The position numbers were made by a program, and so were the translations under genes. A stretch of DNA of 61,070 nt, counting the filler, from Catajapyx aquilonaris (taxonomy: Eukaryota): NCBI GenBank assembly GCA_000934665.2. It is 3 parts of 3 records of this genome, joined end to end, with 100 filler letters (N's around TTAATTAATTAA, not from the genome) between each part and the next. Parts side by side here need not be neighbours in the genome. Positions count along the whole stretch, not along the records: positions 40,786 to 61,070 come from JYFJ02006301.1; 2 more parts are not named here. The stretch is one strand, 5' to 3'. How positions within the stretch are numbered: the first letter of the stretch is position 1; each line of letters begins with the position of its first letter. Below are positions 1,817 to 57,300 of this stretch, one piece after another. Under the pieces are notes generated by a model, which made no database searches, was not told the origin of the DNA, and saw only the letters and a list, made by a program, of their open reading frames with translations.

Positions 1817-2362
1817 TATATTCTTTGCAATTGTCTTATTCTTGATACAGCTAGATTATTCGGCTCTCAATATAACTGGAAGTGAAATAAGAGTTGACTG
1901 AATAATTATTACCTGATAAAATAAATCACCATAATTGTTAGGTGTGAGTGGCAACAAAGATGAAGACAAGAATTTATTGGCAAGTATCAGCCTATGAGAG
2001 AGAGGGGGGGAGAGGTGGTGGGGGGAGATGCTTCCATTGGTCTTTAATACAATATAAAGGTGGCAAACCCAACTGGACTTGTGAAGTCTCTGCTTTGATA
2101 ATAACCTGTGTGGGTCCAAAGCATGCAATGACGACAATATCATCTCACACAATAATCTTGTCTCTCAATAGCAACTAAGGAAGAGGGTGAACATGAAGTC
2201 AACTGAATAAGTACGTGCCTAGTGATATAACCAGCAAATTTATCAAAATCAACGAGGATGAGTACGTCTTAATAATCTGAAAGGAGCCCATGCCTAAAAT
2301 CACAAGCAAATTTTTCCACCACCCTCTATGTATAATATGACCTCCAAAGAACTTGCACTCAC

Positions 2363-5300
2363 CATCTGGCCTGTGGACTTCAAATTCTTCTTCAGGTCCC
2401 CTAACCTCCAACAAAAAGTCATAGGGGGCCTTTCCCCCACGTCCCCCTCCAGAAATCTCGGATATGGGTTGATCCTCTTGTTCCTCAAAACTGCATTCAA
2501 TGCTGTCATAAAATTTGTCATATCTTACGAGACGGCAACGCTCGATGGGTACTACATCCTCCAGGTCAAACTCCTTTGAATAACCAAAACCAATTAGACT
2601 CACTTGATATCACAGCTCCTCAAGCCACTTACTTTGTATGCCTGCAGAGTGGCCTCCCTAAGGGTGTCTTCTCTATCTAGTCTGAGTTTTGTGTCCACCA
2701 TCCTGCTCTCCGTTGGATGGTTTAAATACACCTTCACCTTGCATAAGCTCTTCTCACGTTCACGTGCTGCCCTTTCAAGCTCCTCCCGTTCACGAAGGGA
2801 TTCAAGAAGGCCCTGTACAAATAGTAACATTCCTTAATTTTAATTTGCCTTAGAAGTCGGTTCACACTCATCACCTTTATGTGCTCAGGGAAGTGTTCTT
2901 GTGCAATGGGTTCCGTGTTTCTACATTTATCAATTTGTCTATACATCAGCATGTATGCATTGGTGCTTGAGCTATATGCTCCAGAATAGTATGCACGGGT
3001 AGGGCCTCCACCATATGTCTTCCGGATGTCATCATATGTGATCTGCCAAAAGAAGTACATATGTATCATTTGGGGCAATTCAGTAAGTGTACTTATGTCG
3101 ACTAATGTACCATTCTAAACAGAAACCGCATTATATTGTACATAAATCAATGCCTTTTACAATGCAACTTAAATTCATCAATCATACCAAATCTCTGGCC
3201 ATCGTTCAGCAGTACTTCTGTCATGTATCGATATTTGAACATGATCTTTCAATGCAGGTGCCAGTCATTGTTTTGTTGAGGATTCCATTACATGCATTTG
3301 TCATTATATTCCTCTAATTTTTAAGACAAAAAGAAGCATATTTCACCAAATTCAACTTTAAATGACACACCAAACAAACAACTCGACACTCCCCAGTTAA
3401 CATTTAACATATGAATGTTGTAACAAATGCACGTAATGGAAGCCATTTTTGTCCAAGCATTCCCACGTTTGGAAACACAGAGTGGTAGAAAACACCCATA
3501 AACATAGGAGAGAATCTCTCTAAGCACTTCCCACATAAGAAAATCCCATCTGAATGTAGGATCAATCATGACACCTGAGAAGTGGAAGACTATGGCATCA
3601 CTCACTGTACGGGGTTGGACATTAATCACACCGTATTATTGCTAACGACATTTTCTGATGGGGCAGGATTGCAAATCAAAGTGATAGAGTGCACGCCGTG
3701 CGAGTAAGAAATGGTAGGCCTTGGGTGACGTCACTGGCTGGGGACAAGCCTTTTTCTACATTGCCCCCCAGCCGGTGACGTCACTCAAGGCCTACCACTT
3801 CTTACTCGCACGGCTCGCACTTTATCACTTCGAATTGCAATTCTGCCGCATCAGAAAATGACGCTAGCAGTATGACGGAATTAATGTCCAGCACTGTACT
3901 ACTGTACATTGTACCACCCAGTTAAAGTACAGTCACAGTTTGATAATGCAGCCCATCATGCAATGATTATTCACAAGTCACTCACCTCACTGATGTAATG
4001 TTTAAGAAATAACTTGGGACTTGAAATATTAGATTTGAGATAGAATCCTTTCCATATTGGATCATGCATGATAGGAAGAGGTAGCACATTTCATAGCACT
4101 TATTTTCTAAGAATTCCTAATAGAGTAGATGAACACTACCTCTCCTCTTGCGCGGAAAAATTAAAACTTTACACTCACATTTGAGACAAGCTGGTCATTG
4201 AAACAGAACCACTCTTGCAGCTGGAAGTCCTTGACATACGCATAATAATGCCCACCAGATGCACTCCCTGAGTGGATCATAATGGAGAACAACTCGTAGT
4301 CATATGGCCCTGCAGTACACTGCGGTGTTGAGTTCTGGCGGTTGCGTTCATTCTCCTGCTGCACGACAATGGGAGGTGATGGATGTGAAGTTGATCCACC
4401 ACCACTAAGGTCTATTCCTTCATCATCATCATCTTGCTCTGCTGTGCGGGGGTCCATTCCCATGCCTGTGCCTATATCTGTCCCAGCACAAGAAGTGGTT
4501 TCTTCATCCAAACCTGAACCACTGTCGGTAGTGCTGCTGTCATCGCATTTTCCAGGTAGATCATCAAGAAGTGTTTCCTCACCCAAGGCATGCACAAAAC
4601 TATTCAGGTTCAAGGTCTCTGGAAAGGTCACCCTGTAGTGGAAAAAAAAATCAATAAAATATACTAAAAGTAAATAATATTTTCATGATGAGCAATTAAT
4701 TAGCCTTTGGAACAGAAAAGTTTCAACCTACTTGTCATTGAGCTTGATACGATGTAAGGTAGCATAGTCAAAGTCGAACCTCTTCAGATGGATGGTGAGA
4801 ATGTATGGGAATTTAGAGAATTTGAGTCCCTTGTGAGCATCGCACTTCTTGTCACACTTCTCACAAAAGTACTGGTTGTTCCCCTCTAGAATTTCTGGCT
4901 GGACAAAGGCACGCAAAGCCTCTTCCTACAAAAAATTGAAGGCTACAATGGTAACCGCAATTGCACTTCCTACAAAGCAGAACATGGCACTGACCACACT
5001 CCCATATGCTGTGGAACTTCCAAAGGGCCTGACAGGCAAGGGTATGTCAAGGAAAGTATCCTCCCGTTGCTTCTCTGTGCCACATTCAAGGCACTTCACA
5101 TAATCAATCATCTTCCCCTCATAGAGGCGGGATATTAAGTCAGACTGGTCAGTGTTTCTGAACTTCTGTTCCAAGGCATCAAACATCACTCGGCACAACT
5201 CCTGAATGTCATGCTGCTGCCATGCCTCCGACGAATCCCACCCAAAGCTGCGGGTCAGCTCGGTTGTTTCCACTGCCTGCTTGTCTGAGGTCTATGCAAA

Positions 5301-8152
5301 AAAATGAAGAACAATGTGCTCTGTAATGTAATGTAAACCACTTAGAGCAGTGTTTCCCAAACTTGGGGTCGTGAACATAATATTTGGGGTTGCGAGGAAG
5401 GGAAATAACTTGTTTTTACAAAATGATTCTATCTCTCTTGAAAAATATGCCCATGTAAAATGTAAAAGCAAAGATGTGTTCTGAGCATGGCCCACTACAC
5501 TAACCCAGCTGAAAGTCATATTCTCATATTGCATAATTGGGTTCGTTCGTCCACACGTGTCTCAACACTGAGTAAGATACAGAACAATTTAGATGCTCAA
5601 CAATAAAATTATCAATGATTGTCACGACTATCATTGTGCTATAGGCTATGTGTCTTTTCATGTTGGTGGATTAAAATGTGCATATGGGTGACGGGAGAGT
5701 AGTGGTACGCTAGTGTGACGTGGGGAGGGGTTTGATGTGCAAAGTGGGGGCCGCGAATTTTATGATACAATTTTCTGGAGTTGCCAACGAAAAAGATTGG
5801 GAAGCACTGATTTAGAGTAACAATAAAAGTACAACTGATCACATGGAACGTAAAAACTGATATTGAAATAAATCGTATGTTCGAATTAACATGTTCAATT
5901 ACTGTTGCACGACATAAAATACAGGATGTGCATATTTAGATTAAAGCCTTCTCTATTTCAGATGGTAAGAAATTATTAAATCAATGTAATGGAGTAAAAT
6001 ATATCAAATTGGAACTAAGAACTGGCATAGTTTTCCTTAATGAAATTAGCTGGTGTTTGAAATCTCTGCATTACAGTAATCAGTTCTAACAAAGTGCCTT
6101 GGAACTACTTTGTCACTTAAGGGGGCACTACAGTCATCACCCTTCAAAAATTCGATTTTTAAAGTTTTATTTTTGAAAAAAATAAAGCGTCTTTTCCTGC
6201 GTCGAACGCGGGAAACAGCGTCCCGAAATTCAAATAATTGGCGCGTCGGGAGTGGACGCCTGGCAACCAGCCCTGGAAACGACTTTCGGTTCCCCCTCCT
6301 CTCCCCATCTACCCGCTGGCATGAGCGCCATCAGGTGCTGCTCCCGCGCGGACGCGGAGGCACTACACCGGTCCTGATGGCAATAGCTCGTCTGTGTGAC
6401 ACTAACGTATTTTTTGAATCACATTATCGCTCTGTTATGTTACCCTACTTTTAACACATTTTTCTCAGTTTGCCAGATTTGGACACTGTCGACATCGCCC
6501 AGGCCACAAAAATTTAGCTACGGACTTCCCACTTAACCAGATTTATCCTCAAACATGGTGCTATCATTCGGCCTAAAAGAATTAGCCTGCTCGAACTACT
6601 TCTATTTTTACTTTAATTAAATGTTTTTCAAAACTGTAGTTATCTTTCTGAAATCGTCAAAAAAATACTAAAACGATTTCAAAAATTATAATTCTAGGTC
6701 AAATGAAAACTACATGCTCAAGGAAGCCTGAGGTCTAATCTGACGGTTGTAGGTTGACCCCAGCGTCCTAAATCGTGTCGACAGTGGCTTGATGTCACGT
6801 GGCCCTGGAGGCCCTTTGACACATGAACGTGACTCGATTATTGCCGCTAATAGGTCTTTGACTTAGGGGTCGTCCATATACCACGTGACCGTTTTGGGGG
6901 GAGGGGGGGGGGGTGCTGATATACCACGGTTGGTCACGGGGGGGAGGGGGGGGGGTCGGCGAAAATTCACGTGGTATCTCTGAACACAGTGAATTNTGCG
7001 GAGCTGTCAATTTCGATCGCGTTTTTTCGACATTTAAAAAAACCACGTGAAAAAGGGGGGGGGGGGTTCCAATGGATACCACGGTCGGTCACTGGGGGGG
7101 AGGGGGGGTCAAAAAGTGCCCGAAAATCGGTCACGTGGTTTATGGACGACCCCTTATGAACATTCATGAAAATGAAGTCCCAAATTCTTGTTTCGAATGG
7201 GGTTTTTTTTGGCGATTTTTTACAAAACCCTTGATTTTGACTGTAGTGCCCCCTTAAGAAGTATGAGATAGTGAAACAGTCTACATTTTACAAATGTGAA
7301 ATGTCAGTTCACTTGTCTAGGAAGGACAGGGCATGGCTGTAGCTACAATCCTATAACAAAATGATTTTATCAACATATCCATCACCAACAACTCAGAAAT
7401 CCTATGCTAAGCGTGCTCCAGAAGATATTATTGATTTGGAAATTTTGCAAATGCAGGTGATAGATCATGAGTTTCCAGTTGAGAAAGTCAGCTTCAACCA
7501 ACACTAAAATAAACCTTTAGAACAGTGCTTCCCAAACTGTGGGTCACGAGGGAGGGTAACAAATTTTCACAAAGTGATTCTCTCTCTCTCTTGAAAATTA
7601 TGCCTATAAGGAAAGTTCCAGAACAATTCTGATACTAGACAGGGAGATGCAGTGGCGCTGCGGTAACGTACGTGCCCACGGATGTTAAGGTCCCGGGTTT
7701 GAACCCAACCCGGGGATACCCCTTTCATCTCGTGCAGAGTCCTCAGGTCGTCTCTGGTTTCATTTCGGGTGGTATTTCCGACAGACTAAGCCACCCAGGG
7801 GAGCTTACAAAATTACCTTGCTAGTCAATGCACTGCACCTTGCACATCCCCTCCCAGTCCCCCTGCCTGTAGGCCCGGGTGCTTCTAACATGGCCTAAGT
7901 TTCTATCGAACTTTAATCGATGGCGTATAGGAGCAATGGGTCTCCCCGAATACCCTGTAAGGGGTGGCAAGGGGTATTTAAAATAATAATAATAATAATA
8001 CTAGACAATGGTTATCAATGATTTTAATTTCACTGTTTACCTGTCTTTTCATGTTGGGGGGATCAAAATGTGCACATCAGGAGGGTAGCGAATTTTACGA
8101 GACCATTTTTTGGTGTCGCCAACGAAAAAGATTGGGAAGCACTGCTTCAGAA

Positions 8153-8194
<42 letters not shown>

Positions 8195-11100
8195 CAAATA
8201 CAGAAAGTACAGCCCTCCATATTGCATAGTAATCGTGTGCATGAGGAAATCAGAGGCAGCACACTTGGTGGCACTACTATAAGCATTTTCTGCAGGTCAA
8301 GGACCAGTGCATGCTGTTAGTGAAGCTATGGCTGTGGATAAATTGACAATGCGAGGCTAGCAGGGCCTCCTGGAAGTTCAGAAGTTAATATTATTTACAA
8401 CACACATCTTGGTATTTTCTGCTCTTTCATGTATACGAGGTGTGATCAAAAAGTTCCCGGATTTTCGGTATACCGTGCAAACCAGTGGAGATACGAACTT
8501 GTGATGCTACGGGGAGCTAGGAGCACCTTTCAGCTATTAGTCTGAAAAATATCGTCTTCATACGTGCAGATGTTTCCGAGTTTCGGCAGTTTTATTGACA
8601 CCGTGTTCTTGTGCTTCTGCGATTTTTCTAAATGGCTGAAGTTAGGGAGGAAAGGATTTGTATTAAATTTTGCTTCCAGCTCAACAAAATTTCGGCTGCA
8701 ACCCACCGAATGCTGAACAAGGCTTTTGATGAGTAATATGTAAGACAAGCAATAACATATGAGTGGGTTAACAGCTTCAAAAGTGACGCGCCAAGTTCGC
8801 AGCAAAATCAACTCAATGCTGATCATTTTCTTTGACATTATAGGAATTGTGCATATGGAGTTTCTCCCTCATGGTAAAGCTGTCAACGGCAAGTCTTACT
8901 GCGATGGTTTGAGACAATTTAGGCTCAATTGGCCGGAGATATGGAAGAACAGAGACAGGTTGCGGCACCATGACAATGCCACCTGCACACACCTCACGCG
9001 TAGTCAGGGACTTCCTGACAAAAAACAACATGACCACTGTTCCACACCCTGCATATTCGTTCGTCCTGGCACCACGTGATTTCTACCTCTTCCCTAAAAT
9101 GAAACTTGGGTAGAAAAGGAGGCATTTTGACTCCACTAAAGATCTCTAAGCAAAATCACAGCAGGTGCTGAACACGCAACAGCTAGCCAATTTTTTGGGG
9201 TGCTTCCAAAAATGGGAAATTCGCTGGTATCGTTGTATACGTGCCCAAGGTAACTACTTTGAAGGTGGCAGTGGAAATTAGGACTTAAAGTAAATATTAA
9301 TAGTTTTATGAACACAGTCTGGGAACTTTTTGATCACACCTCGTACAGTGAAACCACAACAAAAGAAGGTTAATGAAGTTTAATTGGCATTAAAATTAGT
9401 TCTATTATGTTAGTCTACTGATTTTCAATATTACCTGTAGCTGAAGGAAGAGCTTCTGCAGTTGATAGGGAATTGATTTTCCCTCCTCTTCCTCCTTCCC
9501 ATCAAATTCCCACCTGTACATGGCATTGCGGAATTCGGGAGTCATGAAAAGAGCTTGAAGGAGACTGTTCAAATAGCATGTCATGGCCTGGTTAACAAGT
9601 CCAACATGCCCACTTGATCCATCTAGTCTAAGGTGATTGGATGACGATGAGTCTGGGTAGTCAGAATTGATCACAGGGGCCAGAGGGGATTGGTTGTCAC
9701 TGCCTTTTCCATCTGAAGTTGAGCCAGAGGCAGACAACAGCTGGGTGCTTGTTTTCTCCGTTATAATGAGCCGGTTACGCATATCTGGGTCACAGGAAAA
9801 GCCAACTGATTCCAGAGTATGATTCTTCAGGTCATTCAGCACAACCTGCACAAGAAATGGAAAAGGAGTCTTCAGGTTACAATAGCAAGTGATTAAATTC
9901 AATTCCATAGTATTATTCACTTCAGCTATTCAGTACAGATTCTAAAAATCCACTGGCTAGGGGTTGTAATGCTGGTGGAGAAATTTGATATCAGCGTAAT
10001 GGATCATGAGAAGGAGGCAAAGGGTCCAGTTAAGCATAACATCACCCACTGTAGAATAGCAATTTTAAAATGGCAATTCAAAATCAGTAGAAATTTTAAT
10101 GAATCAAATTCCTTTCTCCATCCAGATCCCTACACTCTGATTTTTCAAGACTGAAATGACACCACCACACCATTGTTGTCATTGTATGGTGCCTTACTTA
10201 TAAATGGACAATGATAAAGTCATCACAACCATTAAAAATCAAGTGTGTCATTCTTAAGGCAACAATTTGTAAATTGGCCCCTGGCTCTTTCTGCAGCGGG
10301 CTACATATACTTTTAGGACGAACCCTTAACATCACCCATGAACAGTGTTAATGTAAATATAAATTTAAAATCTGGTTCAAAGAAGATGTGTTCTATCACA
10401 TACCCAGACCATCTCTAGGTCATATTCATGACAAATCACCATTATGCTGATCCAAATCAGTTATCAACATTACGTGGCACATTTTAAACACAGGGTGGTA
10501 CACTAACGCCTCGTTCACCGAGGCCACCAAGGTGACGCCACCACGTCTTTGCATTTCTGCAAGTGAAGCCTTTCACACGTGGTGGTGGCCACGTCCTTGG
10601 TCGTACCGCCAGAACGCCACCAGAAATACTGATGGCAGGCAGGGCGATTTTTGGCGCGACCAACGGGAAGCGCCGCCACATGTTTGCATCGAATCATATG
10701 AAGCCTTTCCCACAAGACGCGACATTTCTTGCAGCCAGACATGCATTTTGAGACTGCAGCTCCGCTGGTGGAGAGTTCATGGTGGCAAACAAATCTGCAA
10801 CACACGGCCAGAGAAGCGCTGCCTTTATGCGGTGGCGTGTCCATGGTGGCCTCGTGTGAAAGAGGCCTATGTTGACAACTCCAACAGTGAGGTGGGTTTA
10901 AATATCACAACTTGCTTGTTCCAGTTGCATATGCCCATGGGTTCCCACTGGTTGATCTGGTGACTTGTACATGAGAGTACAGTTTGAGACTCGAGCAAGT
11001 AATCCATCACATTTAACCCTGCCCCATTGTTGGAGGAATCAACTTAGGCAGTGTGTCACCCTGGCCACAGCACCATGCCATTTCCCACTACTCTCACAAG

Positions 11101-27029: not shown

Positions 27030-27858
27030 TCCGTAAGAGCCTGAAGATTTGCAATTAAGCTGTTGTTTTCCAGGCCCAGCTGCTTCAGTGAAACCAGTAA
27101 CTCGCATTTCTCTTTCCGTTCATCCTCCAGCTGTTTCTCCAGCTCCTTAATCCTCTCTTGCATATGTTGCAAAAGGTTTTCATCTAGTTGAGGTGGTTCA
27201 TTACATGATGGGCTGCCAGTGGTGTCCGACGAGGATGTTGATGGCTGATCTCCCTCATGTTCCTCTTCCAGCATATCTTGCGCTGGTCGTTTTCGACTTC
27301 TTCTTACGACTCTTTCACGTCGTGATGTGGAACTCTCCATAGGAACTAGAGTATTATAAGAAAGTCGCATTTTTGAATTGGGGACGGGTTATTCTATAAT
27401 TATTATTACTCATAGAGTCGTGTGACATACCTTCAACATGTGGCAATTTCAAATGAGGAACAGCATCGGCCTTAAGGGGTAGCCCATGTTCTGGCATGTA
27501 GTTGAGCAGTTCATGCTTTAGGCCTCTCACGTAGTCTTCTTCATTGAAGTGATTTGAGCATACACGCGGAGTTGAAACCTTTAAAATGCAGAAATTGTAG
27601 CCAATTGTATACTCCATAATAGTTGCAGATGCAGAATCATTACTCAATAGGGACAGGGAGAGAGAGAGATTTTCTCAAATAGGTGAATGTATACCAAGGT
27701 GTTTACCATTACAGTCTACTCCCATTGAATGTGTCCTGGCTTCTCAGAGCCGCAATCCACTTCGAGGAGAGTGCCGCATCTTTATGAAAGCGGTGCAACC
27801 TAATCTCTGATGTGTTTTTTTCATTATTGTTGCACCCAAAAGCACAGCACAAAGGCAT
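27030..27858 (-). mobile_element. THAP-domain plus coiled-coil transposase N-terminal fragment (intron retained, disrupted)
   Basis: MPLCCAFGC..HRF..KW..VCSNHF..LKADAVP (C2CH THAP signature) followed by ERIKELEKQLEDER. Confidence 0.8.
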
Positions 27859-28369
27859 GCTTGCCAGTACAGTCCCACATGAGAACTGGTTGTGAGCTAT
27901 CTTCGACTCCACAGATATTTTCTTCCCACAAGTCCCAAAATTCTTCACATTTTCACACCTTGATAGCCGGGCTCCAGGGCTTCTAGACATATGTCGCCAA
28001 TGTGAGCCCAAAGGTCGGGGGGGGTTACACATCATTGCCGACCAGAATAGCTTGTCTGCTCTTAGTCCCCAGTACTGACTGCAGTGACGGTACTTACCTG
28101 CAGAGCAGCCCACATTATTTAAAATTTAAAGTCTTCAGTTGGTGATCTCTCACATAATGCCATTGTTTTTGACCCATTAAGATAAATAATAAGTGCAGTT
28201 AAACAGGTAACGTTGGTATATGTTTATTTGACATATTTATTTATTAGTTACAGGAAACAGAATGGTGCTCAATGCAGCAATGTTCATACCGGGTGCTCCA
28301 AATCGCGCACCTTGTGACGCAGGCGCCTTGGGGGAATGGGACGGGAACCTGCGTAGCGTTCGACCTTCT

Positions 28370-29846: not shown

Positions 29847-31125
29847 TCAATATATCAGGAAGGGGCTTCCTTCTTCATTTATGCAACTAAACATCCCCTT
29901 AGCATGAGTCATAAATCTGACTTCGAATGCCAGCGTGGCTTCATGATGTACGGCTGCTAATCCATCCTGCGATCCAATGAAACTGGCATCTTCAAAATCT
30001 GTAATCATCCTGGAAAGGTCTGGACCTGACACCATCCACTTAAGAAGAGCTGTTTCATTGTCAACGATTCCTATTGCTCCACCATCACATTTAATCTTCT
30101 TATTGTTTTGCTCATGAAACTGGTCATCTGACATGGCAGAAAATGATGACGTGGTTCTGTTGCTTGTGAATTTTTCTTGCAGAAACTCCGCATATACATC
30201 GGGATGCCTGGCAGGCAGCTCTTCAAGATCACGCACAAACACTGGTAACCAACGTGAATAATGGACTGCATCCAAGGCAAAGGTCCAAGGGCATGTTCTA
30301 TTGAGTGTAACAACAAACAATTTGAAGTTTGCAGTACGAATGCTGAATACTAGTTGTAGCAGCAGGGTCTCGATCTCAATGACAGTATTCCAGTAATGAA
30401 ACTGTGAAGATTCCAACACCTGTCTCTTCTTCCATTCTGTTTTATCTTCCTTCTCATCATCGGACAAATCTTCGCAGTGTTTCTGGTACGCCTGTTCCTG
30501 GAGACTATACAGAGCAACTATAGTCACTTCATGAGCATATCTAGTTATTTTAACATGTGAGGCTGTCAGGCAGCTACACCTACACTGGTAACACCAGCAT
30601 TTACAAGAGTGTCTGTCCACCCGCTGTTAACTAACCATTTACCGAGGATGTTTAGGAGCATCATCTCAATGTGTAGGGCTCCCATCATTACTATGACTGT
30701 GTCTTCACCATGTGTGTTGGGAAAATGCCACTGGATCTGTTTGGCTATGGCGTAAACTGGTTGGTCTGCTGTGATCACAGGAGTTTGGTTTTGGTTCAGT
30801 TTGCATGTTGCAGCAATAACGACATCCATCAAATGTTTCACCATAGCTGGAGAAGCGATCTCCTCATGAAAAAGGGGCAGTAACGTGGAGTAGCTCTTAA
30901 GTACTTCACGTTGGTGCTGGTGAGACTTGGAATGAAAGCCAGCAAAGGATATCTGTCCTTGTTCTTCTTCGTCAGGTTCATCATTTGTGATGATTTCTGT
31001 AGCTGTATTGAGCCACTGCTCTGGTTTGAAGGTAGTTTCTTCATAAGTAGTGGGAGTAACAGTGTGTAATGAGGGATCCGCTACTACCTTTCCCAATGGT
31101 GGAACATTGGTGTAGGAGATCGGTA
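29847..31125 (-). mobile_element. Academ-like transposase core fragment (frameshift near 30570)
   Basis: QTPVITADQPVYAIAKQIQW, MMGALHIEM, TRYAHEVT, HYSRWLPVF and DQFHEQNNK motifs; family assigned from recalled motifs. Confidence 0.65.
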
Positions 31126-31254
31126 CACTGCAAAAAATACTTGGATGTGCCATCAATTTATAGGTTGCCACAACCAAATTTCTTGGATGGATCCAGGCCA
31201 ACCAATTTTATGGTTGTGACAACCAATGGGGATTGGGTGGGTCTGCTTGGTTGA

Positions 31255-33168: not shown

Positions 33169-34049
33169 ATTAAAATGCACCCACAGAACTGGTAGCTTTT
33201 TTAGGAAACAACAGAACAACGAGAATAAAAAGTGAATAATCTCTCAGTCTACCTAATCTTGCAACATGTCACTGAAGCCAGATAGTACAATGCATGAATA
33301 AACCTGACAACAAACAACTTAAATTGAGGGGCTCCCAGCAAGAGTGGTTCAAGTGACAAAAAAATTTAAAAAAGTTATTATATACCATTAGCATTGTTGC
33401 GATACCATCTTTCACGTGCAATACTGATTCTTGTGGAGAAAAATTATTAGCTATGCAATTTTTAAGTTGGCACGCTCCATAAGACATCACAGGAAGTTAT
33501 TAACTTTAAGTCCAATTTTCTCGGAAACAACATTTTGTGACTTGAACCGCTCTTGCTGGGAGCCCCTCAATTTTCATCAACTGTGTAACATAGACCGTAT
33601 AGGCCTATGCTTTTGGCTATGATTGACTGCTTCAAAACACTGTGTTCTGGCATGTTTGCTTACATAATTATAATTGACCTGTCATCGAAGCTGGACAAAC
33701 CTTCTTCACATCTTGAATGTGTAAGCTTCCTTGATATTTCAGCAGCTTTTCAAGAAACACTGCCCGTCGACCTAGGGGGGGAATTATTTCTGCCAGCAAG
33801 TCTGGCTTTGTTGACAAAAAACAAAGCAGACTCTCAGTATCCACATATTGCTCTAGAAGAAGAGATGCCTGTTATAGTTACCATTTTCACCCCTCTTGTT
33901 AGTTATAAAGGTGTCATGTCTCCAATGGTAATGTCTCCAATGTTAATGTCTCCAACTAACTGACTGGCCTCAGTGACCATGGCAATCAGTGGCACGTGCC
34001 TGTAACTGGGTTGTAACCACCTGCAACTAGTAACGGTTTGCAACCTAGC

Positions 34050-34745
34050 TGCTGTTGCAAGGAAGTAGCCTACTTCTTGAACCCTGTCATATGAAACACT
34101 TACACCTAATTTACAAAGTTTGTTAACTATTTTCTTCTTCTTGGTAACATTATGAATCATAAGTCCTATGTATAGAGGAAGAGGTGTTTCGTTCTTCAGT
34201 TGATGGTGAGGTCTCTGAACAGTTGCTTTTCTGATTGATTTCACGCTGTTGAATCGGATCAGCTGAGAAATGGAGAGTGCTGCATTTTGACAATGGTCCA
34301 AATTCTGTGCTTCGCTGTCAATAGTTGGGCCTACCAGTAACATTGTTATGAAATGCAATAACACTACTGAAACAGAATTCATAGGTGTAAAATCTCCCCT
34401 GAATGAGCCCTTAAATTGTGGAAAATCACGAAACAAGGTTTTCCTTATAATAGCAGCTGCCCGTCCCAGACACAGGCCATCACTGAAAGCACCCTGAGAG
34501 CATGAGTCGCTAATGGCTTCCCCAACATTGCCCTCGAAACTGAGAAGTATTTCACGACCACTCTTGTCAGCTCTTAGCCCGGGAACAAATGAAGCTAGGT
34601 GGTCTTTCAGACGTGTCCTGTTAATGTCTTTTTCTGCTGTGTTCACTCCCATTTCGGTCATACGCTGTGCAGTAACTTTGGTGAGAAATGATAGTTTGAA
34701 AACCGGTGACTGGTCACTGCACATGTACATGTCTTTCAGATAGTC
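34050..34745 (-). mobile_element. Academ-like transposase N-terminal fragment
   Basis: NRTRLKDHL, ALSISQLIRFNS, ETPLPLYIGLMIH and LGVSVSYDRV, which normally precede the 29847-31125 region. Confidence 0.65.
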
Positions 34746-35004
34746 GACTAATTCAGTGACAACACTTCTGCATCTTCTGCCTAAACCTGCCTTCTAGCCC
34801 ACTGTGCGGCGGTCCGCGGAATGAAAACTAATATATAAAATCCAGGCGTCGCCCACCCTTCACTATCCTCCCTACCCTTGTTGTCACCTTATTCGTTGCT
34901 TTTTGTTTTTGGGTTGCGGCCTTATGTTTTGGCCTTTCTTTCTTCTCACACCTCCTCGTGAGGGAGTACAATTGGTCTCTAAGCATCCCTCCCCTCCCCC
35001 TCCC

Positions 35005-35839: not shown

Positions 35840-36420
35840 TCCGCCGCAAATTGTAGTGACACTTTAAACATGAGGTTCTCTTGCACACAGGACAAAAGTC
35901 AAGCCATGAAAATATACGTATATTATAGTTACCTGAAACTGAACACGTATCCAGTGACTGCATCTGCCAGCATGAAAACCTTTATCCCACACTTTTTAGG
36001 ATTTTCTGGCATATACTCCCGCAGTCCCGATCATCTGCTCATCCAGGCTCAGTTGATGTCCTGGGAAGAACATCAGTGGCAGCTTCTCAGAGATGGCATC
36101 CACCAGCGGCCTCACCTTGAACTGCTTGTCATGGTTGTTGTTTTTTTTCATCTACGAATTGTCGTTGATATGCTGCTCTGATACAATGTCTGTGAGTCGA
36201 TTAATGGTCATCACACTCCTGTACCTATCGCGGCGTGTCATTGGGTCCGTGCTCCAATAGTCTGACACCATCCTGTCGCTAGCTTCCACTTCCATGGCCA
36301 CGCAGAGTCCCAGGAAGCCGTGGAACTCAGGAACTGTTAGCGGCTCCCACTTCAACCCCTTTATTTCCTTCCATTCTATATCTGTTTTGTGTTGTGTACA
36401 GGTTTGTCTGATCAAGAATC
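35840..36420 (-). mobile_element. piggyBac transposase fragments
   Basis: WEPLTVPEFHGFLGLCVAM..DYWSTDP..YRSVMTINR; downstream Cys-rich CPVCKRTSCLKCH. Confidence 0.75.
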
Positions 36421-36899
36421 TCCTTCATGGCATTGTCGTTAAAGGCTGACCTTTTCCATCGCGAAACCCTCAATGATTTCGTTCACTGGGAGATATCGAA
36501 GCAGTGTGCTCTCTATATTATTTTTATTTTTTGTCAATTTTATTTACCCCATCAGAGGACAGGGCCCTTTTAGGGGGACACATGCAAAGCATGTACAATG
36601 AATACTGCTCTAAACAACGGATACGATATGCATATGAACAAACACAAAATTTGCCGTTCGGGCCTCAAGCACACCTAGATCATGTCAGTTCCAGCACAGT
36701 TCTCAGTCACACATTTCGATTCATTTAATTACATTTTCCAAAAAAATTGTTAAAGTTATAGGTTTGTTCCTTAGTTATATCGGCCAACACTGACTGAAAT
36801 CGGTCGGGAGGTTAGGTTGGCAAGTTATGCAAGTTGACGTCTGGGTGTTCGGAAAAAAGGACAAAGATAAATTATGTGGCAGGGAGAGAATGGTTCTGT

Positions 36900-37300
36900 G
36901 ATGCGTGCTCTCTAAACTCAATCGAAGATTAAGCATGGCTGTTCTAAGTTGGTTTTTAATTCTGGTCATTTTTGATGAGAATCTCTCTCCGCTGCAGTTA
37001 GTGATCGGCAAGCATTTAAAAATCTTCAGTGCGACGGCCACATTCGGAAAGACACTTTCCAGTTTGTTGATCTTGATGTTTTTCAAATATTTTTCCGCTG
37101 AAGATGAATTCTGCTGCATAATGACAGTAAATTGCAAGAACTGGTCAGGAAATGTATCTCAACATCAGAAAGGTAACATGTGCAAAACTTTTTAGCCGCG
37201 GCAAGAATCTCTGCACTGCCCATGCCACTAAAATTGCTTATGAACCCGAATTTGTTGACAGAAGTGTTGTACGCACTAATGCGAGACTCCAAGCAAACCC
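36900..37300 (-). mobile_element. hAT transposase C-terminal dimerisation-domain fragment
   Basis: VFPNVAVALKIFKCLPITNCSGERFSSKMTRIKNQLRTAM. Confidence 0.85.
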
Positions 37301-45788: not shown

Positions 45789-47143
45789 TAGTGTTGGGCA
45801 AAAGCTGCTTTTTTTACAAAGCAGCTTCAGTAGTAACTGCTTTTTTTAAAAAAAGCAGCTTCAAAAAGCAGTTTTTACGAAAGTTGTTTAAACAAAGACA
45901 CAAAGTAATGAAAGAACTGAAAGTAGCTCCGTGACGTTTTATACTTATTTTATCTATTTATATTAAATCATCATGTATAAATACTTGGGAGTTCCAATTG
46001 CTGCATAAACAAGTACGGCCAGTGACAAAAGGGATATCGGAGATATCCGGTATGTGACCCACACTAGTATAAACTTGAAGGTGAGGGGATATAAAAAGGG
46101 CGTTCAAATTGTTAGATACTAAAATAATACCAGTTGTAACATACAGTGCCGCGGTTTGGGCACTGGACCGAACACATGAAATAGAAAGAATTCAAATTTA
46201 TTTTATTAAGAAATTTCTCACATTGCCTCGCAAACAGGAAGGAGAAATATCTAGATAAACACATTCAAACAGCTAATTAAATTCTTACATAAGACATGGG
46301 AAAGTTGGGAACTGCCAGACAACTATTGGAGTAAAAAAGCCCTACGATGGCTAATTTCGAACGAAGTAAATTCTACCAAAAAATTGTAAATGGAAGACAG
46401 CTTTAAGACATCTGTTTCGGAGATTGGGCTTTACTTGGGAGAGTTGGTTGATGGCAGGAAATTATGAAAATATACAGATATTGTATAAAAATTATATAAC
46501 TTCAACGTTGGACCAATATTTATTCTTCTCATTACAGTCATTATATTCGATTAGCCCCAGACTTTGGCATGGCTCAATACTTTTTATATTCACTGCCTCT
46601 TACTCATACTCGCTTAATCTGTAGTCTGAGGAACAAGTCCGAGTATTTTTTCGTAAAGGGCTACAAATTTAAATTTTCTAATGAATCTAGCTGCACTTTG
46701 TGCAACGAGAATCAAGATTTGACATTGTTCCATTTGATATACAGTGCGACTGCAAAAATTTTTTCAAACCAGAGAATGAAACACCTCCAGGGTATTCCTC
46801 GACTTCCACCATATTCAATATATAATTTGTTTGATCTTTGATGAGAACCCGCTTTTTGCCGTACAACAAATGTTTTTTTTTTTCCGAAGCCGCAAATTAT
46901 TTGATGTTTTGTAACTTTTGTGATATAGTTTTATGAGTTTGGATATTATAACTGTACGTATATAAAGTGTTCTGTAAGGGGAAGTCTTCCTGATATGCCC
47001 GCGCAGACGCGCAGAGGCAGAAAAAACAAAAAAGCAGTTTTTCTCCAAAAGCAGCTTTTCCTCAAACTCAAAGCAGTGGATGTACTGCTTTTTTTCTAAA
47101 GCAGCTTTTAAAAAGCTGCTTTGCTTTTTTGGGCCCAACACTA
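45789..47143. mobile_element. Non-autonomous hAT element containing a decayed LINE ORF2 fragment
   Basis: TAGTGTTGGGC TIRs, perfect 8-bp TSD TTCTTTGA, AAAAGCAGC subterminal repeats; internal + strand YKYLGV, YSAAVWAL..IERIQ..FIKKFL and CTLCN...H. Confidence 0.85.
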
Positions 47144-47473
47144 TTCTTTGACCCATGCCTGTAAAGAATGACACAAGGGCTGGGCCGGGCTGGGCTAACA
47201 TAATTATGATACCAATGTTTTTATTGAACCTTACGGAACCTTCATTTGAATGGTGAATACTAGGAATTTAGCGTATAATTCCAGTTTCACATCCCTGGGC
47301 AAGGGCATTGAGCAAGACCGGCACCTTGACTGCTTGTGACTGGAAGGACAACTAGCTGGTGAATTTGGTGTTGACAGACTGTTCTTGGTAATGTATGCCA
47401 AGTAGGCCTAAGCCAAAATTGATGGTAATTAATGTCATGATTCTTCCTCCTAATACAGCTAATCAATTGAAAA

Positions 47474-48481
47474 ATGTCGAACGTCCAACATATGGTGTCT
47501 ACCCAGCAAAGTCAACCATTTGGCTTCAAGTGGACTATTGAGAAATATAAAGCGGTAGAAGCGGAGAGCAAAAGTATATCCCAACAATTTACTTCTGGTG
47601 GAAGCGAAACAAGGAAGTGGAGGATGACACTTCATCCCAAAGGCAATGGTCAGGAATCTAGTGGTTTTCTCTCACTCTTCTTCTGCTACCGTCCTATTCC
47701 AACTGGTGATACGCTAACAGCATCATGCAAGTACTCTATTAAGAGTGCCACCAACAACGACTACTCAAAAGGTCCATATGTCCATGTGTACAGCAGGGAA
47801 AATATGTCTCTTTCTTGGGGTGTACCTAAATTTATTTCTGTCGAAGAGTTGGCAAGGAGGTCAGATGACCTCCTTCCTAATGGTACCCTGACTGTGGTTT
47901 GTGAGCTGGAGATCATGTTGGAGAGAAAATCTCAGGAGGTGAAAGAGAAAGTTGAGGTTCATGGCCCTGAATTATCTGAAGACGTGCAGCAATATTTGAA
48001 GTCACAGAAGACCGATGTAACGTTGGTGGTTAATGGGTCAGGGTTTGAAGTGCACAAGTTTATTATGTGTGCTCGTAGCCCAGTATTTGCAGCCATGTTT
48101 GAGCATGAGACTGAGGAAAAAATGACAGGAGAGGTGATGATCAAGGACTTCAGTCCTGAAGTGGTGCGAGGCCTCATACACTTCATGTACTATGATCAAA
48201 CTCCAGAAAACATGACTGATAAAACAGCTATGGATCTGTTGGAAGCTGCCGATAAGTATCAGATTCTTCGGCTGAAGTCTTTGTGCGAGATTCATCTCAT
48301 AAGCCGTGTAACTGTAGAAACCGTACTTGATATTCTGACTGTGGCCATGATGCATGATTCGCCAGTACTGAAGGAAGCATGTGTGACGTTTGTCAAAGCC
48401 AACGTGAACGCGGTTAAGGGGTCCGAGGCTTGGAAACAGTGTACTAATGTTGAAGTAGTGAAACTCCTTTTTAATCGGTGA
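47474..48481 (+). CDS. Speckle-type POZ protein-like (MATH + BTB), intronless divergent paralog, 335 aa
   Basis: MATH (FKWTI..KWRMTLHPKG..FLSLF..SWGVPKFI..LLPNGTLTVVCE) and BTB (TDVTLVV..HKFIMCARSPVFAAMFEH..LLEAADKY); probable 5' UTR intron; AATAAA at 48899. Confidence 0.92.
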   Translation: MSNVQHMVSTQQSQPFGFKWTIEKYKAVEAESKSISQQFTSGGSETRKWRMTLHPKGNGQESSGFLSLFFCYRPIPTGDTLTASCKYSIKSATNNDYSKGPYVHVYSRENMSLSWGVPKFISVEELARRSDDLLPNGTLTVVCELEIMLERKSQEVKEKVEVHGPELSEDVQQYLKSQKTDVTLVVNGSGFEVHKFIMCARSPVFAAMFEHETEEKMTGEVMIKDFSPEVVRGLIHFMYYDQTPENMTDKTAMDLLEAADKYQILRLKSLCEIHLISRVTVETVLDILTVAMMHDSPVLKEACVTFVKANVNAVKGSEAWKQCTNVEVVKLLFNR

Positions 48482-49240
48482 ATTGGGTGTAGCACTTGTG
48501 CAAGTAATATGCTATTCACACCTAAATGATTTTCAAGTAGTTCACTGTAGGGTAGTAGGTGGCCCAAGGAAGGGTAGAGGTCAAGGCCATTTATAGGTTT
48601 TTAAAAAGAATCTATGAAACATACTTAGTTAATTCCATAAATTTTGAAATTATTTTCTGCCTATCCTACTTCTTACTTAAATTACATTAATTGTATACAT
48701 TACATCTTGAAATTATTTTCTTACTATCCTCCTCCTTAAATTACTTTAATTTTGTAGAACGTTTCCAACCCATAATCAATTCAAGCTAACATGTGAGTGT
48801 AGCAAATGATTTGCATTTATTAGTGTTCAAAAAAATTATTCAATTATTGAATGTATGTAATTATTGAAGGGTACCTGTCAATGAATTCTTTTCACCTGAA
48901 TAAAAAATACATTTTAAAACATGAAAACACAAAATGTTGCTTAACAGTTAACATCTTCCTGTATCTGCTTGGAGCGCATTTTAAAAAGAATACGAATTAC
49001 TGCAATGCAAATCTGTAATAGAAAATTCTCTGAAAATATTGTTACTTTGCAGTCGAGCCGTTTTTTTTTTTAAACTGATGATTACTGTCCAGTGCAAGTA
49101 TTTTTAATAGTGGCCATCAACATTGCTATTGAATCCTGTGAAATTGGTAATCAGAAACGCGGCGAGGACATACTTTATCTTTCAGGTTTTGACTTTAATG
49201 CTCATTCAGGTACATGGATTTCTTCAGCATGCAATGCATG

Positions 49241-50121
49241 TCACAGGCCTTCCTCTAAGGCTGGAGTGTCACAGTTCCCTCCGCCTTGGAACTCATCCCA
49301 AAGGTCATTGAAGACCCCCTGCATCAGGCCGATGTGCGGCCTGTTGTTGGAGATCAGGCAGTGCTCCCAGTTCCCGTAGATGGCTTGGTTGGTCCAGTTC
49401 AGGGAGCCCATCATGCAGTACTTTCCATCCATTATCACAAACTTGTTGTGCATGATGTACGACCCTTTCTTAGTTGCCACGGGTATACCTGGAATATAAA
49501 GATCACTTTATATAACAACAAGGTGTCTTTTCCCTCAATCAGCGGCATGCAAGCCATCCTCAGACGCACCTGCGTCACTGAAACGCCGCACCTGCGACAT
49601 GGTGGCAGTGACGTGGTCGTACTCTGTGATGATTCACACTTCAACTCCCCTCCTCTTGGCACGAATAGTGGCCTCGCTCAGCAGCATATGGGTAATGAGG
49701 CACATGCAGATGTCCAGCGTCTTCTCTGTCCGATCCAGGAAGCCAATGATGGTCCTGCAAAGGAATCGATTAGATATGTGCAAGTGATACGTCAATGCGG
49801 ATCGTACACAACGTGGTCTGCCTTGTGTATAAAGGGAGTCATGTCGATGTCCACCTCCTCCTTGAAGCCCCACTCCGGCTTCCCCATGCATGGGAAGAAC
49901 ATGGCATACTCCATGGGGATCACCCCCACGCCGTACTCCCTCTCCTGCTCCCTCCTGGCCTTCTCCGCCTTCTTCCTCCTGACCCTCCTCTCCTTCCTGG
50001 CCTCCCGCTTATTCCTCCGTACCACCCACCTCTTCACAATGCGGTATGTCAAGTACGCCGCACTCACGCATCCGACACGCACCAACATCGCAGTAACATC
50101 ACCCATCTTGCTCCCCTTCAT
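49241..50121 (-). CDS. zuc: Zucchini/PLD6-like (mitochondrial cardiolipin hydrolase family) with an in-frame TGA at 49636-49634; possible pseudogene or null allele
   Basis: Exons 50121-49808, 49754-49570, 49488-49241 (GT-AG, phases match); N-terminal hydrophobic anchor plus basic tract, FFP, LDICM, RGVEV*IIT, HKD motif MHNKFVIMD, GSLNWT..GNWE. Confidence 0.88.
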
Positions 50122-50164
50122 CCTCAACCTGCAATTAATCAGCATGGATTAGAAGTAAGCCTGT

Positions 50165-50700
50165 TTGGGCAAATATCATCAACAGTTTGTTTGTTTGTCC
50201 AGACTCGGTTGCCATGGACAGACAGACAAGGTTGTTTCCACGGGTAAGGTAATTAACTGTTTGTTCGTTTGTCCAGGGTTTCGTTGCCATGCACAGACTA
50301 GGCTGTTTCCGCAAGGTAATGCAATCAACAGTTTGTTTGTTTGTCCAGGGTTTGGTTGCCATGGACAAACTTCCATATGGGTAACGTGATCAGCAGTTTG
50401 TTCGTTCAGACTTGGTTTGCCATGGACACACAAACAGTCATGCAAGGCATCTGTTTCCATTGGCAAGATAATCAACAAGTTCGTCTGCATGTTTGTCCAT
50501 GGTTTGGTTGCCATGGACAGAGAAACTATAATATATATCCATAGAGCAATGCCATCAACAAGTCTGTTTGACTGTTTGTCCAGATTTGGGTTGCCATGGA
50601 CAAGCAAACGGGCAAAAAAAACTAGGCACTTTCCATGGGTAATGTTATTCAACATCAGTTTGTTTGTCCAGATTTTGGGTTGCCATGGACAGACAAACAC
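50165..50700. repeat. Degenerate tandem array (7 units, ~60-90 bp) with GTTGCCATGGAC and TGTTTGTTTG motifs in the putative zuc 5' UTR intron
   Basis: TTGCCATG at about 50209, 50284, 50356, 50417, 50508, 50591 and 50680. Confidence 0.85.
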
Positions 50701-50762
50701 ACTTTTTTCCCCTTATATAAGTGCGTGTAATGTTATGTGGGTATGTAGACCCCTTTTTGTAC

Positions 50763-51380
50763 CTTCCTGTGTCCAGTACCAGCACCCAGAAGACTTCGAA
50801 AAGATCGAAACGTTGAGCAGAAGAACCACGGAACTTTCGTTTCACTTTCTTAAGATGGCGGCCCTGCCGTTCGAATTTGAAGAGCAATGTTGCCAGATCG
50901 ACATATTTATTTGAGGGGAAAAACTGGAACTGCAAACAAAAACAATGAGTATGTAACAATATTATTTTTTAATGTAAAATTATTCACAATATTTTTAAAT
51001 ACAAATTTATTAATAATTCGCATGTCAACCGAACGGGAGAAAGCACGGGAGAAAGTAATAATATGTCAAGTTGCTACTTAAAATGATAGCTATTAGTTTT
51101 CCCTAATAACATCCTCAGCGATCTTCAGTTAGCTTATTTGTTCTGTTCAAAAACTACCTCACCGATGACATCACCCTGTCTGCCGCTCCATATCTGCTCC
51201 ATATGATGTGAATTTTAGAACACGCCCTTGGTTTCCAGCACCAGCAGTCCAGCAGACGGCCGTCTCCCACCTTCTGGCTTGCATGTCTTTTTTCCTCTCT
51301 TCTGCTTGCTCTCCTGCTCATGCCATCATAAGCTGCTAACAATGCTGTTATAACTAGTATAGCTAGTATAACTATAAGTC
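50763..51380. promoter_or_regulatory. Probable bidirectional promoter between the zuc-like and RTN4IP1-like genes
   Basis: Head-to-head genes; YY1-type AAGATGGCGGC at ~50852; minus-strand donor AAG|GTACAA at 50762. Confidence 0.45.
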
Positions 51381-54300: not shown

Positions 54301-57300
54301 CCTTACATGAAGATTAAGTTAGGTAATAGAAACTAAGGAAAAAATTGAATTGCATAAGTACTTATCAAATAAATGCCACTGCATTGCCACTGCAATAAGA
54401 ATGGAAGGAAGTAAGGAAAAGCTGAGAATGGAAGACTCAAAAATCAATGCAATTTTTTTCCCCCTTAATGTCCTTACATTCTCCTTCTGCGAAGGCCTCT
54501 TCTTCATAGGTTTCTTTTGTTTCTTTCTAATATGGCCAACATGGCCATAATTGCAACCCAGGCGATTTTACAGAATATCCTAAATTAAGGCGTCAGAGTT
54601 GGAGTAACTCAAATCACAATGAGTGTACTGGAATAAGCAATAAAATGTGCATATGAAACAATCGCACAATTGAAACTGAACGCCAATGGGACATGAAAAC
54701 AAAGGCCAACGTACGTTCAGAAATTAAGAAGGCACTTTGCTCTATACGATTCTCTCTGCAATATGGCGGGCTGGCGCCGAACTGCGCGGCGCCAAGTGAT
54801 GATATTCGGCACCACCCCTCTAGAGACCTGCCTGAACACCATGCAGGCACTATCTCCCTGATTCCGCTGTAACTAACCGAGATACAGTCCATTGGCCATA
54901 TTACCTTCTACGGCCATATTATCATCAGGGACCTTATTATAGTGGCCAAAAAAAATATGAAAAAATGACAATGTGCATGGTCTTCCCAAGTGCAGGGCCT
55001 GGGGCAGGGCCCCCTCTTGTGCCCCCCCCCCCTCCCCCCAGGGGTGGCTGTGGCTAGAGATGTGAACCATCATTTGGCTGTAATGAATTTTGTGCATGAT
55101 TAATTTGAAATAATTATGGCCAAATAATACTTTGGAATGTAGCTACAGATGAAAATGATATCTAGTGAATTCAAGTTTAAAATGGTATCCCCATTGTCCC
55201 TGTCTATTTCCACTTTGCAGTGACTCGAACCAGCTTATGTGTAGGATGCATTGGCTTTGCTGTTGGAGGTCTCTTTGGGCTCTACGTTGGGTTTGCTCTT
55301 CGGCGACGTGCTGCCATCACTCCTCGAATGAAAGCTGTTGTTTGCAATGCCTATCAAGGATTGGACGTAAGTAGGACATTTTTTTAGTGTGCTATAGGCT
55401 TGCCCATGAATTTGGGAGTAAAAATGGTGCTATCCTTGTTATTCTTGAGTGTAAAAATTATGTTGGAGATGGTTTAAAAGTAATAAATCGGAAATGGTGC
55501 AAATCACATGTTATTGCCTGTATGTGTGCACCTATTTCTGCTATGGTACATGTTCTGACAGTGAGTAAGATTTGTTGAGCCTCTCATACCTTGTAGGGTG
55601 TGACATTGATTGATGACATGCCTCTACCACAAATTACGGATCCGGACCAAGTGTTGATTCAGGTGAAAGCTGCCTCCATAGACGTGGTGGACCTGAGAAT
55701 ATGTACAGGATATTGTCGGGCGCTTCGTCGAATAGTCTCACCGGTGAGTTCGCACCTGCACAATAATTAATCTCATTAAAACTGACATCTTGTTGTGGTC
55801 TGTTGCAGAGTCAAGATGGTGAGTTTCCATTTGTCCTTGGGCGGGAAGCATCAGGAGTGGTACTCGAGACAGGTCAGGAAGTACGCCGGTTGGAAGTAGG
55901 TGATGAAGTGTGGCTATGCACTCCCATATTTGCCCCTGGGCTCATGGCAGAGTTTGTGGTGGTGAAGGAAAGGCATGTGGCTAGGAAGCCACGACACTTG
56001 TCCTTTGAAGTGGCTGCTACTCTGCCATACACCGTGTCGCAAGCTTGGACTCACCTGGTGGGACGGGGTCGAATACGCCCATATTCTTCCCGTGGGAAAA
56101 GGTCAGTCTTTCCTGCAGCAGCAAAGCATTATGCTTTTCATTATTTTTCCCCCTGCTTGAAACCAGCACTTTCCAACGGTCCACTAAGTCGTGAAGCGGC
56201 GATTTATTGTGCATGGCAGGGTGCTGATTTATGGTGGTGGCAGTGCTGTTGGTTGCACAGCCATGCAACTGGTGAAGGCTTGGGGAGGTCATGTGACAGC
56301 CACTGCTTCTACACGCTCCTTGCCTGTTGTGCAGACACTAGGTGCAGATGATGTACTGCTCCACACATTACCTGCAGCAGGAATTGAAATGGAATTGGCC
56401 GCCAAAGAAAAGTAAGTCACATGAGAAAGGCATACACAAGAGTGACTTTGAGACAACCTGATTATTAATTGGGTATTGGCTTCAATATTACATTATTTGC
56501 TGAAAGTCATATTCTATTAATAATACACAGTTCATAATATTTCACTGCCACAGTATCTGTCACAGTCACTGAAAAGTATCTGAAACATTGATGTTGTCAT
56601 TTTCAGGTTTGACCTGGTTTTAAATACAAATGACCCAATTCATCGCAATGACTCTGCATTGTCCTTGTTGCGCTTCTGCAAACCACGAGGACTGGTAGTG
56701 ACCACTTCACCATCACCACTTGCTTCAGATGACTTTGGATTTTTCCTGGGCTTACTCAATTCCTTGTGGATCCGTGTTAGATGTTTGCTACAGAAAGTAA
56801 GTTTTTTGCATTTTAAATCATTAAAGGTCTGAACTCATATCGACTTGAAACTACGACTTCTGCGTCAAAGTCGTACTTTTGCATGTGCGTTTCCATGGCC
56901 TTGTTTGCTTGGGAAAGAGGGCTGTTTCCATATCGACTTGTGCGTCAAAGTCGAACTTGTGCGTCAAAGTCGAACTTATGCGTGTTCGAATCCATCCCGC
57001 CGCGCCGGATGCGCATGCGTGTGCAGTTCCATCCCTGAGGGCACATGCGCAGTATGTCGTGCAGTACGATAATCGAAAAGTGCCAACAATCGAATGTCAA
57101 CAATAATTATATTGACCACGTTCCAGTTTCGTACCTCTAGCGGCGCAATCCGGCATCATGTCAAAATGTCGGCGAAATGCGATCATGCGCGGGAGTCTCG
57201 TATTACCTGCCCATTGTGATTGTGGATGGACTCTGCTTGTCCGCATCTGGTGGTCTGGCCCCAGGGCAGATCATACTGAGATTTTTTTTTTAATGTGAGG

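Follow-up and report, generated by a model that had tools for sequence, protein, structure and literature searches.

A premature stop codon in one copy of a recently expanded PLD6/Zucchini-like gene subfamily of Catajapyx aquilonaris

The window analyzed here is a stretch of 61,070 nucleotides (filler included) joined from three parts of the Catajapyx aquilonaris genome (GenBank assembly GCA_000934665.2; positions 40,786 to 61,070 come from JYFJ02006301.1). It contains a gene resembling Zucchini (Zuc)/PLD6 that is interrupted by a single in-frame TGA. This raises the question of whether the stop is real, whether it is bypassed during expression, and whether it has cost the animal its zuc gene. 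The PLD6-like gene has three exons on the minus strand, with one internal stop and no frameshifts:

49808 to 50128, minus strand: first coding exon (presumed acceptor AG at 50130-50129; ATG at 50121 or 50106)
49755 to 49807, minus strand: intron 1, 53 nt, GT-AG, phase 2, equal in length in all five copies of the gene
49570 to 49754, minus strand: exon 2, coding for the first half of the PLD-like domain (PF13091, E 1e-6)
49634 to 49636, minus strand: premature TGA (sister copies: CGA in C576; CGG in C950, C1748 and C7735)
49489 to 49569, minus strand: intron 2, 81 nt, GT-AG, phase 1, from the gene-model splicing
49241 to 49488, minus strand: last coding exon with the normal stop (PF13091, E 1e-13; PF00614)

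Spliced from the ATG at 50106, the one of the two candidate starts that is common to all five copies, the frame comprises 732 nt with the single internal stop. The TGA lies in exon 2 in the context RRGVEV-TGA-IITEYD, after 139 or 144 codons and 64 nt ahead of the last exon junction. The exon 1 product consists of a moderately hydrophobic N-terminal stretch (best 19-residue Kyte-Doolittle mean of 1.33, and 1.2 to 1.9 in the sister copies) followed by basic residues, an R/K/E-rich basic run, and an FFPC segment without the Cys/His wing pattern described below. The intron 1 junction, weak on its face, is backed by the intronless paralog C1697, which reads through the same residues. PF13091 matches both exon 2 and exon 3, and the HxK(x)4D(x)6GSxN motif is intact in exon 3 (about 49450-49397), downstream of the TGA. 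Gene model and motif thus bear out a preliminary description of this DNA, in which splice sites, frames and HKD motif were held to be intact apart from the TGA and the truncated product was held to lack the catalytic motif.

The preliminary description had also called for a count of paralogs. Four queries (exon 3, PF13091, a distant library protein, and a named insect Zuc) agreed on the same 10 PLD6-like loci in the genome, and the PF13091 search added two loci that we read as PLD1/2-type and PLD3-type genes. Four loci (C576, C950, C1748 and C7735) are near-identical sisters of the window copy, with coding sequences (CDS) 92 to 93% identical to it, 49 to 59 differences per approximately 730 coding bases, and dS values of 0.11 to 0.15. 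All four are free of internal stops and retain the GT-AG introns. At the site of the TGA, all four sisters encode Arg, once as CGA (C576) and three times as CGG. The Arg is therefore well conserved, as had been claimed, but not invariant, as the open-frame paralog C933 has Gln. Likewise, the proposed CGA-to-TGA transition at a CpG is possible, but the single step is unproven, as three of the four sisters have CGG, and CGG>TGG>TGA fits too.

Because C576 pairs with a CGG copy in the tree (bootstrap 99), CGG is the likelier ancestral codon, and two changes would have been needed. A CpG-starting Arg codon would then have mutated through either CGG>CGA>TGA or CGG>TGG>TGA, and both paths include a C>T change at the CpG. 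A singleton-only test for CpG hypermutation was not significant (8/84 versus 25/407, p = 0.24), and the definition of CpG sites used in a broader count (51/141 versus 75/836) inflated that count. The copies do not resolve into a single branching order, with eight sites joining the window copy to C950 and eight joining it to C7735. C576 and C1748 (dS of 0.037) may represent a single locus in two haplotypes, in which case three intact sister loci would remain.

Pairwise dN/dS over the CDS was 0.28 to 0.61 in all 10 pairs of copies. Purifying selection was at first supported by a pooled private-change ratio of 0.50 (p = 0.01), but this support was gone once CpG sites were set aside. Among non-CpG columns, 35 of 404 0-fold (8.7%), 8 of 77 4-fold (10.4%) and 17 of 235 noncoding sites (7.2%) were variable (p of 0.47 to 0.66). 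Divergence between the window copy (49120-50106) and its sisters was 2.4 to 4.9% in the introns and 3' flank versus 6.7 to 8.2% in the CDS. With the CDS more diverged than the introns and 3' flank, and the non-CpG site classes varying alike, constraint since duplication appears weak or is not shown by these comparisons. CpG mutation explains part of the excess divergence of the CDS, and gene conversion or positive selection may contribute. Under neutrality, 2.8 to 4.0 stops would be expected among the 102 variable coding columns, and one was observed (P of 0.09 to 0.24); one stop among the copies is no more than chance gives. Coding indels among the copies were all in frame. With 9 nonsynonymous and 5 synonymous private changes in the window copy versus 31 and 18 in the sisters (p = 1.0), there was no clear excess of amino acid change in the window copy, and decay after the stop was not visible.

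Other members of the family have also degenerated. C1167 contains one stop, one frameshift and an insertion of approximately 90 nt, and in C933 the frame is open, with Thr in place of the catalytic Lys (HxT versus HxK), which suggests that C933 is possibly a catalytically dead copy. This locus (C933:23257-25251) also has a 1-kb second intron and a partial exon 1 copy nearby on the opposite strand. A predicted open frame with an intact HxK was found in 7 of the 10 PLD6-like loci, including C1549 and C7986, the N termini of which are uncertain. Another locus, C1697:17439-18110, holds an intact intronless PLD6-like open reading frame (ORF) of 223 amino acids whose DNA is approximately 80% identical to the intron-bearing, broken C1167:9576-14202; C1697 is apparently a retrocopy that is still intact after its parent gene decayed.

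The reality of the stop was checked in the read contigs of four of the five sequencing runs that contain the stretch (none of the five is recorded as RNA), and the TGA was present in three of the four. An identical 113-nt contig (49604-49716) bears the TGA in runs X1, X2 and X3, without a differing letter and at depths of 26.9, 20.3 and 28.8, respectively. The other zero-difference pieces of the window copy's coding region had depths of 18.8 to 38.2 among those shown, and sister-matching variants had depths of 59.7 to 83.4. Contigs of X5, from a second sample (share of 0.06), matched the upstream repeat only, and none covered the TGA site. In the assembly, the window copy is the only TGA version found by a search that is blind by design to C7735, which has CGG. 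The claim of a TGA at 49636-49634 therefore holds, at a depth of 20 to 29 and with no alternative letter at 49634-49636. As the stop-bearing contig recurs in three separate runs with no differing letter and at a depth matching that of the copy's other pieces, the base-call error offered as one explanation is largely refuted for this one sample. An assembly or base-call error is extremely improbable, even allowing that X1 to X3 are a single sample and possibly the assembly's own source, that contigs lose rare variants, and that at the third codon base the shorter side of the contig measures 30 letters, one below the required 31. The TGA support comes from one sample.

A real stop might still be bypassed or harmless. 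Read-through or recoding of the TGA (by a leaky stop, A-to-I editing to Trp, or selenocysteine) would give a full-length protein, consistent with the intact remainder of the gene and with the Gln tolerated at this position in C933. A leaky stop context is UGA-C, however, whereas the context here is UGA-AUC, that is, UGA-A. Furthermore, the surrounding 130 nt do not fold better than shuffled sequence (z score of -0.58; 51 of 200 shuffles as good), and no Rfam match was found near the gene except a subthreshold scaRNA at 47065-47187. All four sisters have Arg here and none has Cys, and the stop is present in one of five copies; since the sisters are intact, there is no need for rescue. Together, these observations make read-through very unlikely. 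There is even less room for splicing around the stop, for example by removal of 48 nt from the GT that precedes the TGA to an in-frame AG at about 49592: the acceptor is without a pyrimidine tract, an intron of 48 nt would fall short even of the gene's 53-nt intron, and the protein would be deprived of 16 core residues. A slightly better, though still poor, chance can be given to a truncated product (putative membrane anchor, basic run and partial fold) that is kept by selection, for instance as a mitochondrial decoy. Private changes in the window copy point weakly in this direction, with five synonymous and four nonsynonymous before the stop and none and five, respectively, after it. This before/after comparison, which had been suggested in terms of dN/dS, was not significant (p = 0.086), and the intact C7735 leans likewise (7/10 before and 1/8 after). 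Moreover, the stop occurs in just one copy, and the cut falls inside the core domain, according to an alignment to the mouse PLD6 structure 4ggj through C1697, so that the fragment would be unlikely to fold.

We consider it highly probable that a nonsense mutation disabled a copy that was redundant within a PLD6/Zucchini-like subfamily of recent expansion. Indeed, a young pseudogene or a null allele backed up by paralogs had been proposed, and the four sisters with open frames support this. The product would end after 139 to 144 residues and would be inactive because the cut precedes the catalytic motif; the mRNA of the stop-bearing copy would probably be a target of nonsense-mediated decay. 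Loss of the copy would be tolerated because the sister copies remain to cover for it. Young duplicated pseudogenes under birth-and-death evolution are a general concept. The window copy resembles such nonprocessed pseudogenes in its retained introns, one disabling lesion, intact recent sisters, weak selection, and other dying family members. It shows no difference of kind from them, although with its single lesion it may be a null allele that is still segregating and not a fixed pseudogene.

The gene was duplicated as part of a larger block, the components of which are as follows:

47293 to 51034, no strand assigned: duplicated block of approximately 3.7 kb, present in full in C576 and C950 and partly in C1748 and C7735
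47471 to 48481, plus strand: MATH-BTB (SPOP-like) ORF without introns, co-duplicated with the PLD6-like gene, to which it lies tail to tail
50178 to 50694, minus strand: array of 61- to 91-nt units from repeat analysis, seven of them with GTCCATGGCAAC (five exact and two with one mismatch)

The block thus contains the PLD6-like gene, the upstream repeat array and, in some copies, the MATH-BTB ORF, whose C576 copy is 96% identical and whose C950 copy is interrupted by an insertion. As introns are retained in the copies, duplication occurred at the DNA level. Several copies end near 51034 and 47293, which raised the possibility of a transposon origin of the block. This was not accepted: the 25 longest inverted pairs, out of 82, include no terminal inverted repeat that joins the block ends, no target-site duplication was seen by eye at the block ends, short homology extends past the ends in some pairs, and the end sequences are confined to these few copies. 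In C576:41330-43345 and C1748:25314-27336, the gene block is followed by a second copy of the upstream repeat and then by approximately 1.5 kb of shared sequence, in which no gene was identified. A genome search for MATH-BTB genes returned at least 123 matches, which came from 120 of the 271 candidates that were scored; many are full length, single exon and clustered. Judged by these matches, the MATH-BTB family is a large expansion in this genome. Also within the duplicated block, just upstream of the predicted first exon, is AAGATGGCGG (50853-50862, plus strand), which we take to be a YY1/Pho-like motif.

The repeat array probably lies inside a 5' untranslated region intron with a putative donor at 50762. 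The occurrence of GTCCATGGCAAC within one mismatch in seven units exceeds chance (mean of 0.34; 0 of 100 shuffles). Genome-wide, the 12-mer occurs 401 times versus 22 for a control (about 18-fold), frequently in clusters. GTCCATGGCAAC is similar to the right-hand half-site of the RFX X-box, RGYAAC, which is present in six of the seven array copies; we regard this similarity as a lead only. None of the seven matches the full X-box consensus, RYYNYY N1-3 RRNRAC (PMC2375033), and an X-box alone does not predict regulation, as stated in the same source.

Elsewhere in the window, transposon fragments comprising two THAP domains, a piggyBac/IS4-type DDE piece and a hAT dimerization piece are located at 27354-28125 and 36152-37158 (minus strand), and two long ORFs (29847-31207 and 33903-34793) are without a clear Pfam match. 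Ubiquitin C-terminal hydrolase exons (PF00443) at 2199-9929 on the minus strand presumably belong to a USP47-like gene, and a GroES-like dehydrogenase exon (PF08240) at 55767-56351 on the plus strand is presumably RTN4IP1-like.

With the Zuc/PLD6/MitoPLD proteins, the window gene shares a single PLD-like domain, the HxK(x)4D(x)6GSxN motif and a hydrophobic N terminus. The six best PDB matches of C1697 were all PLD6/Zuc structures (mouse, human-type and fly; E of 1e-21 to 7e-17), with mouse 4ggj matched at 1e-21; the fly structure is 4gel. A single-sequence structure model of C1697 (mean pLDDT of 42) was too poor for use. No close relative was seen in other species, as the best single-stretch match among 1.84 billion representatives, a named insect cardiolipin hydrolase, was only 43% identical. 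One word-index protein search returned no matches and another a single distant one. Five of 10 library matches that were looked up bear names, four of them insect Zuc/cardiolipin hydrolase and one uncharacterized. Aligned over 130 core columns, the window protein and Anabrus Zuc (XP_067004322) share 38% identity.

In all four named insect Zuc proteins (e.g., Anabrus XP_067004322 and Homalodisca XP_046659684), the FF motif is followed by a CxxH...C...C pattern, whereas the pattern is present in none of seven aligned proteins of the window subfamily. We take this pattern, in name and role, to be the "zinc wing" of Zuc. One Cys and two His remain in the subfamily, so that another metal site is possible. 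The subfamily further differs from Zuc in its long basic R/K/E run and its multiple copies, and the window copy in ending before the catalytic motif. In the tree, which excludes C1167 as a broken copy, the subfamily and C1697 form one clade (bootstrap 100); support drops to 13 to 34% at the deeper nodes, among them the one joining this clade to C1549 and C7986. C1549 (L036:4145-6444) and C7986 (L037) are PLD6-like loci with an acidic poly-Glu run. Both have an upstream exon with a wing-like Cys/His pattern, spliced in frame at a phase 2 intron in the equivalent position, and appear to be better candidates for a functional zuc than the window subfamily. The preliminary description had treated the window gene as the organism's zuc; as 1 of 10 PLD6-like loci, in a subfamily without the wing pattern, we class it as a PLD6 family member and not as canonical zuc.

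Zuc is held at the mitochondrial outer membrane by an N-terminal anchor, where it produces phased piRNA ends (PMC9114089), and is a homodimer (PMC10690185). The HxK(x)4D(x)6GSxN motif is common to Zuc and Nuc, and its catalytic His is required in both fly and mouse Zuc (PMC5714352). Extra copies of piRNA pathway genes have been described, including an additional pld6 copy carried on a cichlid B chromosome (PMC9490952) and, in 28 of the 100 insect transcriptomes of another study, duplicates of Piwi/Aubergine (PMC5521735). The 10 PLD6-like loci reported here exceed what these two sources describe in the parts available to us, and neither part concerns a wing-less subfamily. No published zuc expansion was found in titles or abstract openings, with subscription literature largely outside this scope.

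The single stop itself matters little and reflects drift acting on a spare copy. It implies neither a zuc-null animal nor unusual decoding. The family is of wider interest, as 10 PLD6-like loci in one invertebrate genome are split into wing-less and wing-bearing groups, and its members could serve as natural variants for studying the role of the zinc wing and the separability of nuclease and phospholipase activities. A more speculative reading, which we hold to be doubtful, is that the wing-less subfamily is a lineage-specific Zucchini offshoot that, with an array of RFX-like half-sites in front of it, was amplified jointly with a MATH-BTB gene. The intact copies would have a noncanonical germ line job, such as hydrolysis of spermatid mitochondrial lipid rather than RNA, while the wing-bearing C1549 and C7986 would make piRNAs. 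If true, the family would represent a natural split of two activities ascribed to PLD6.
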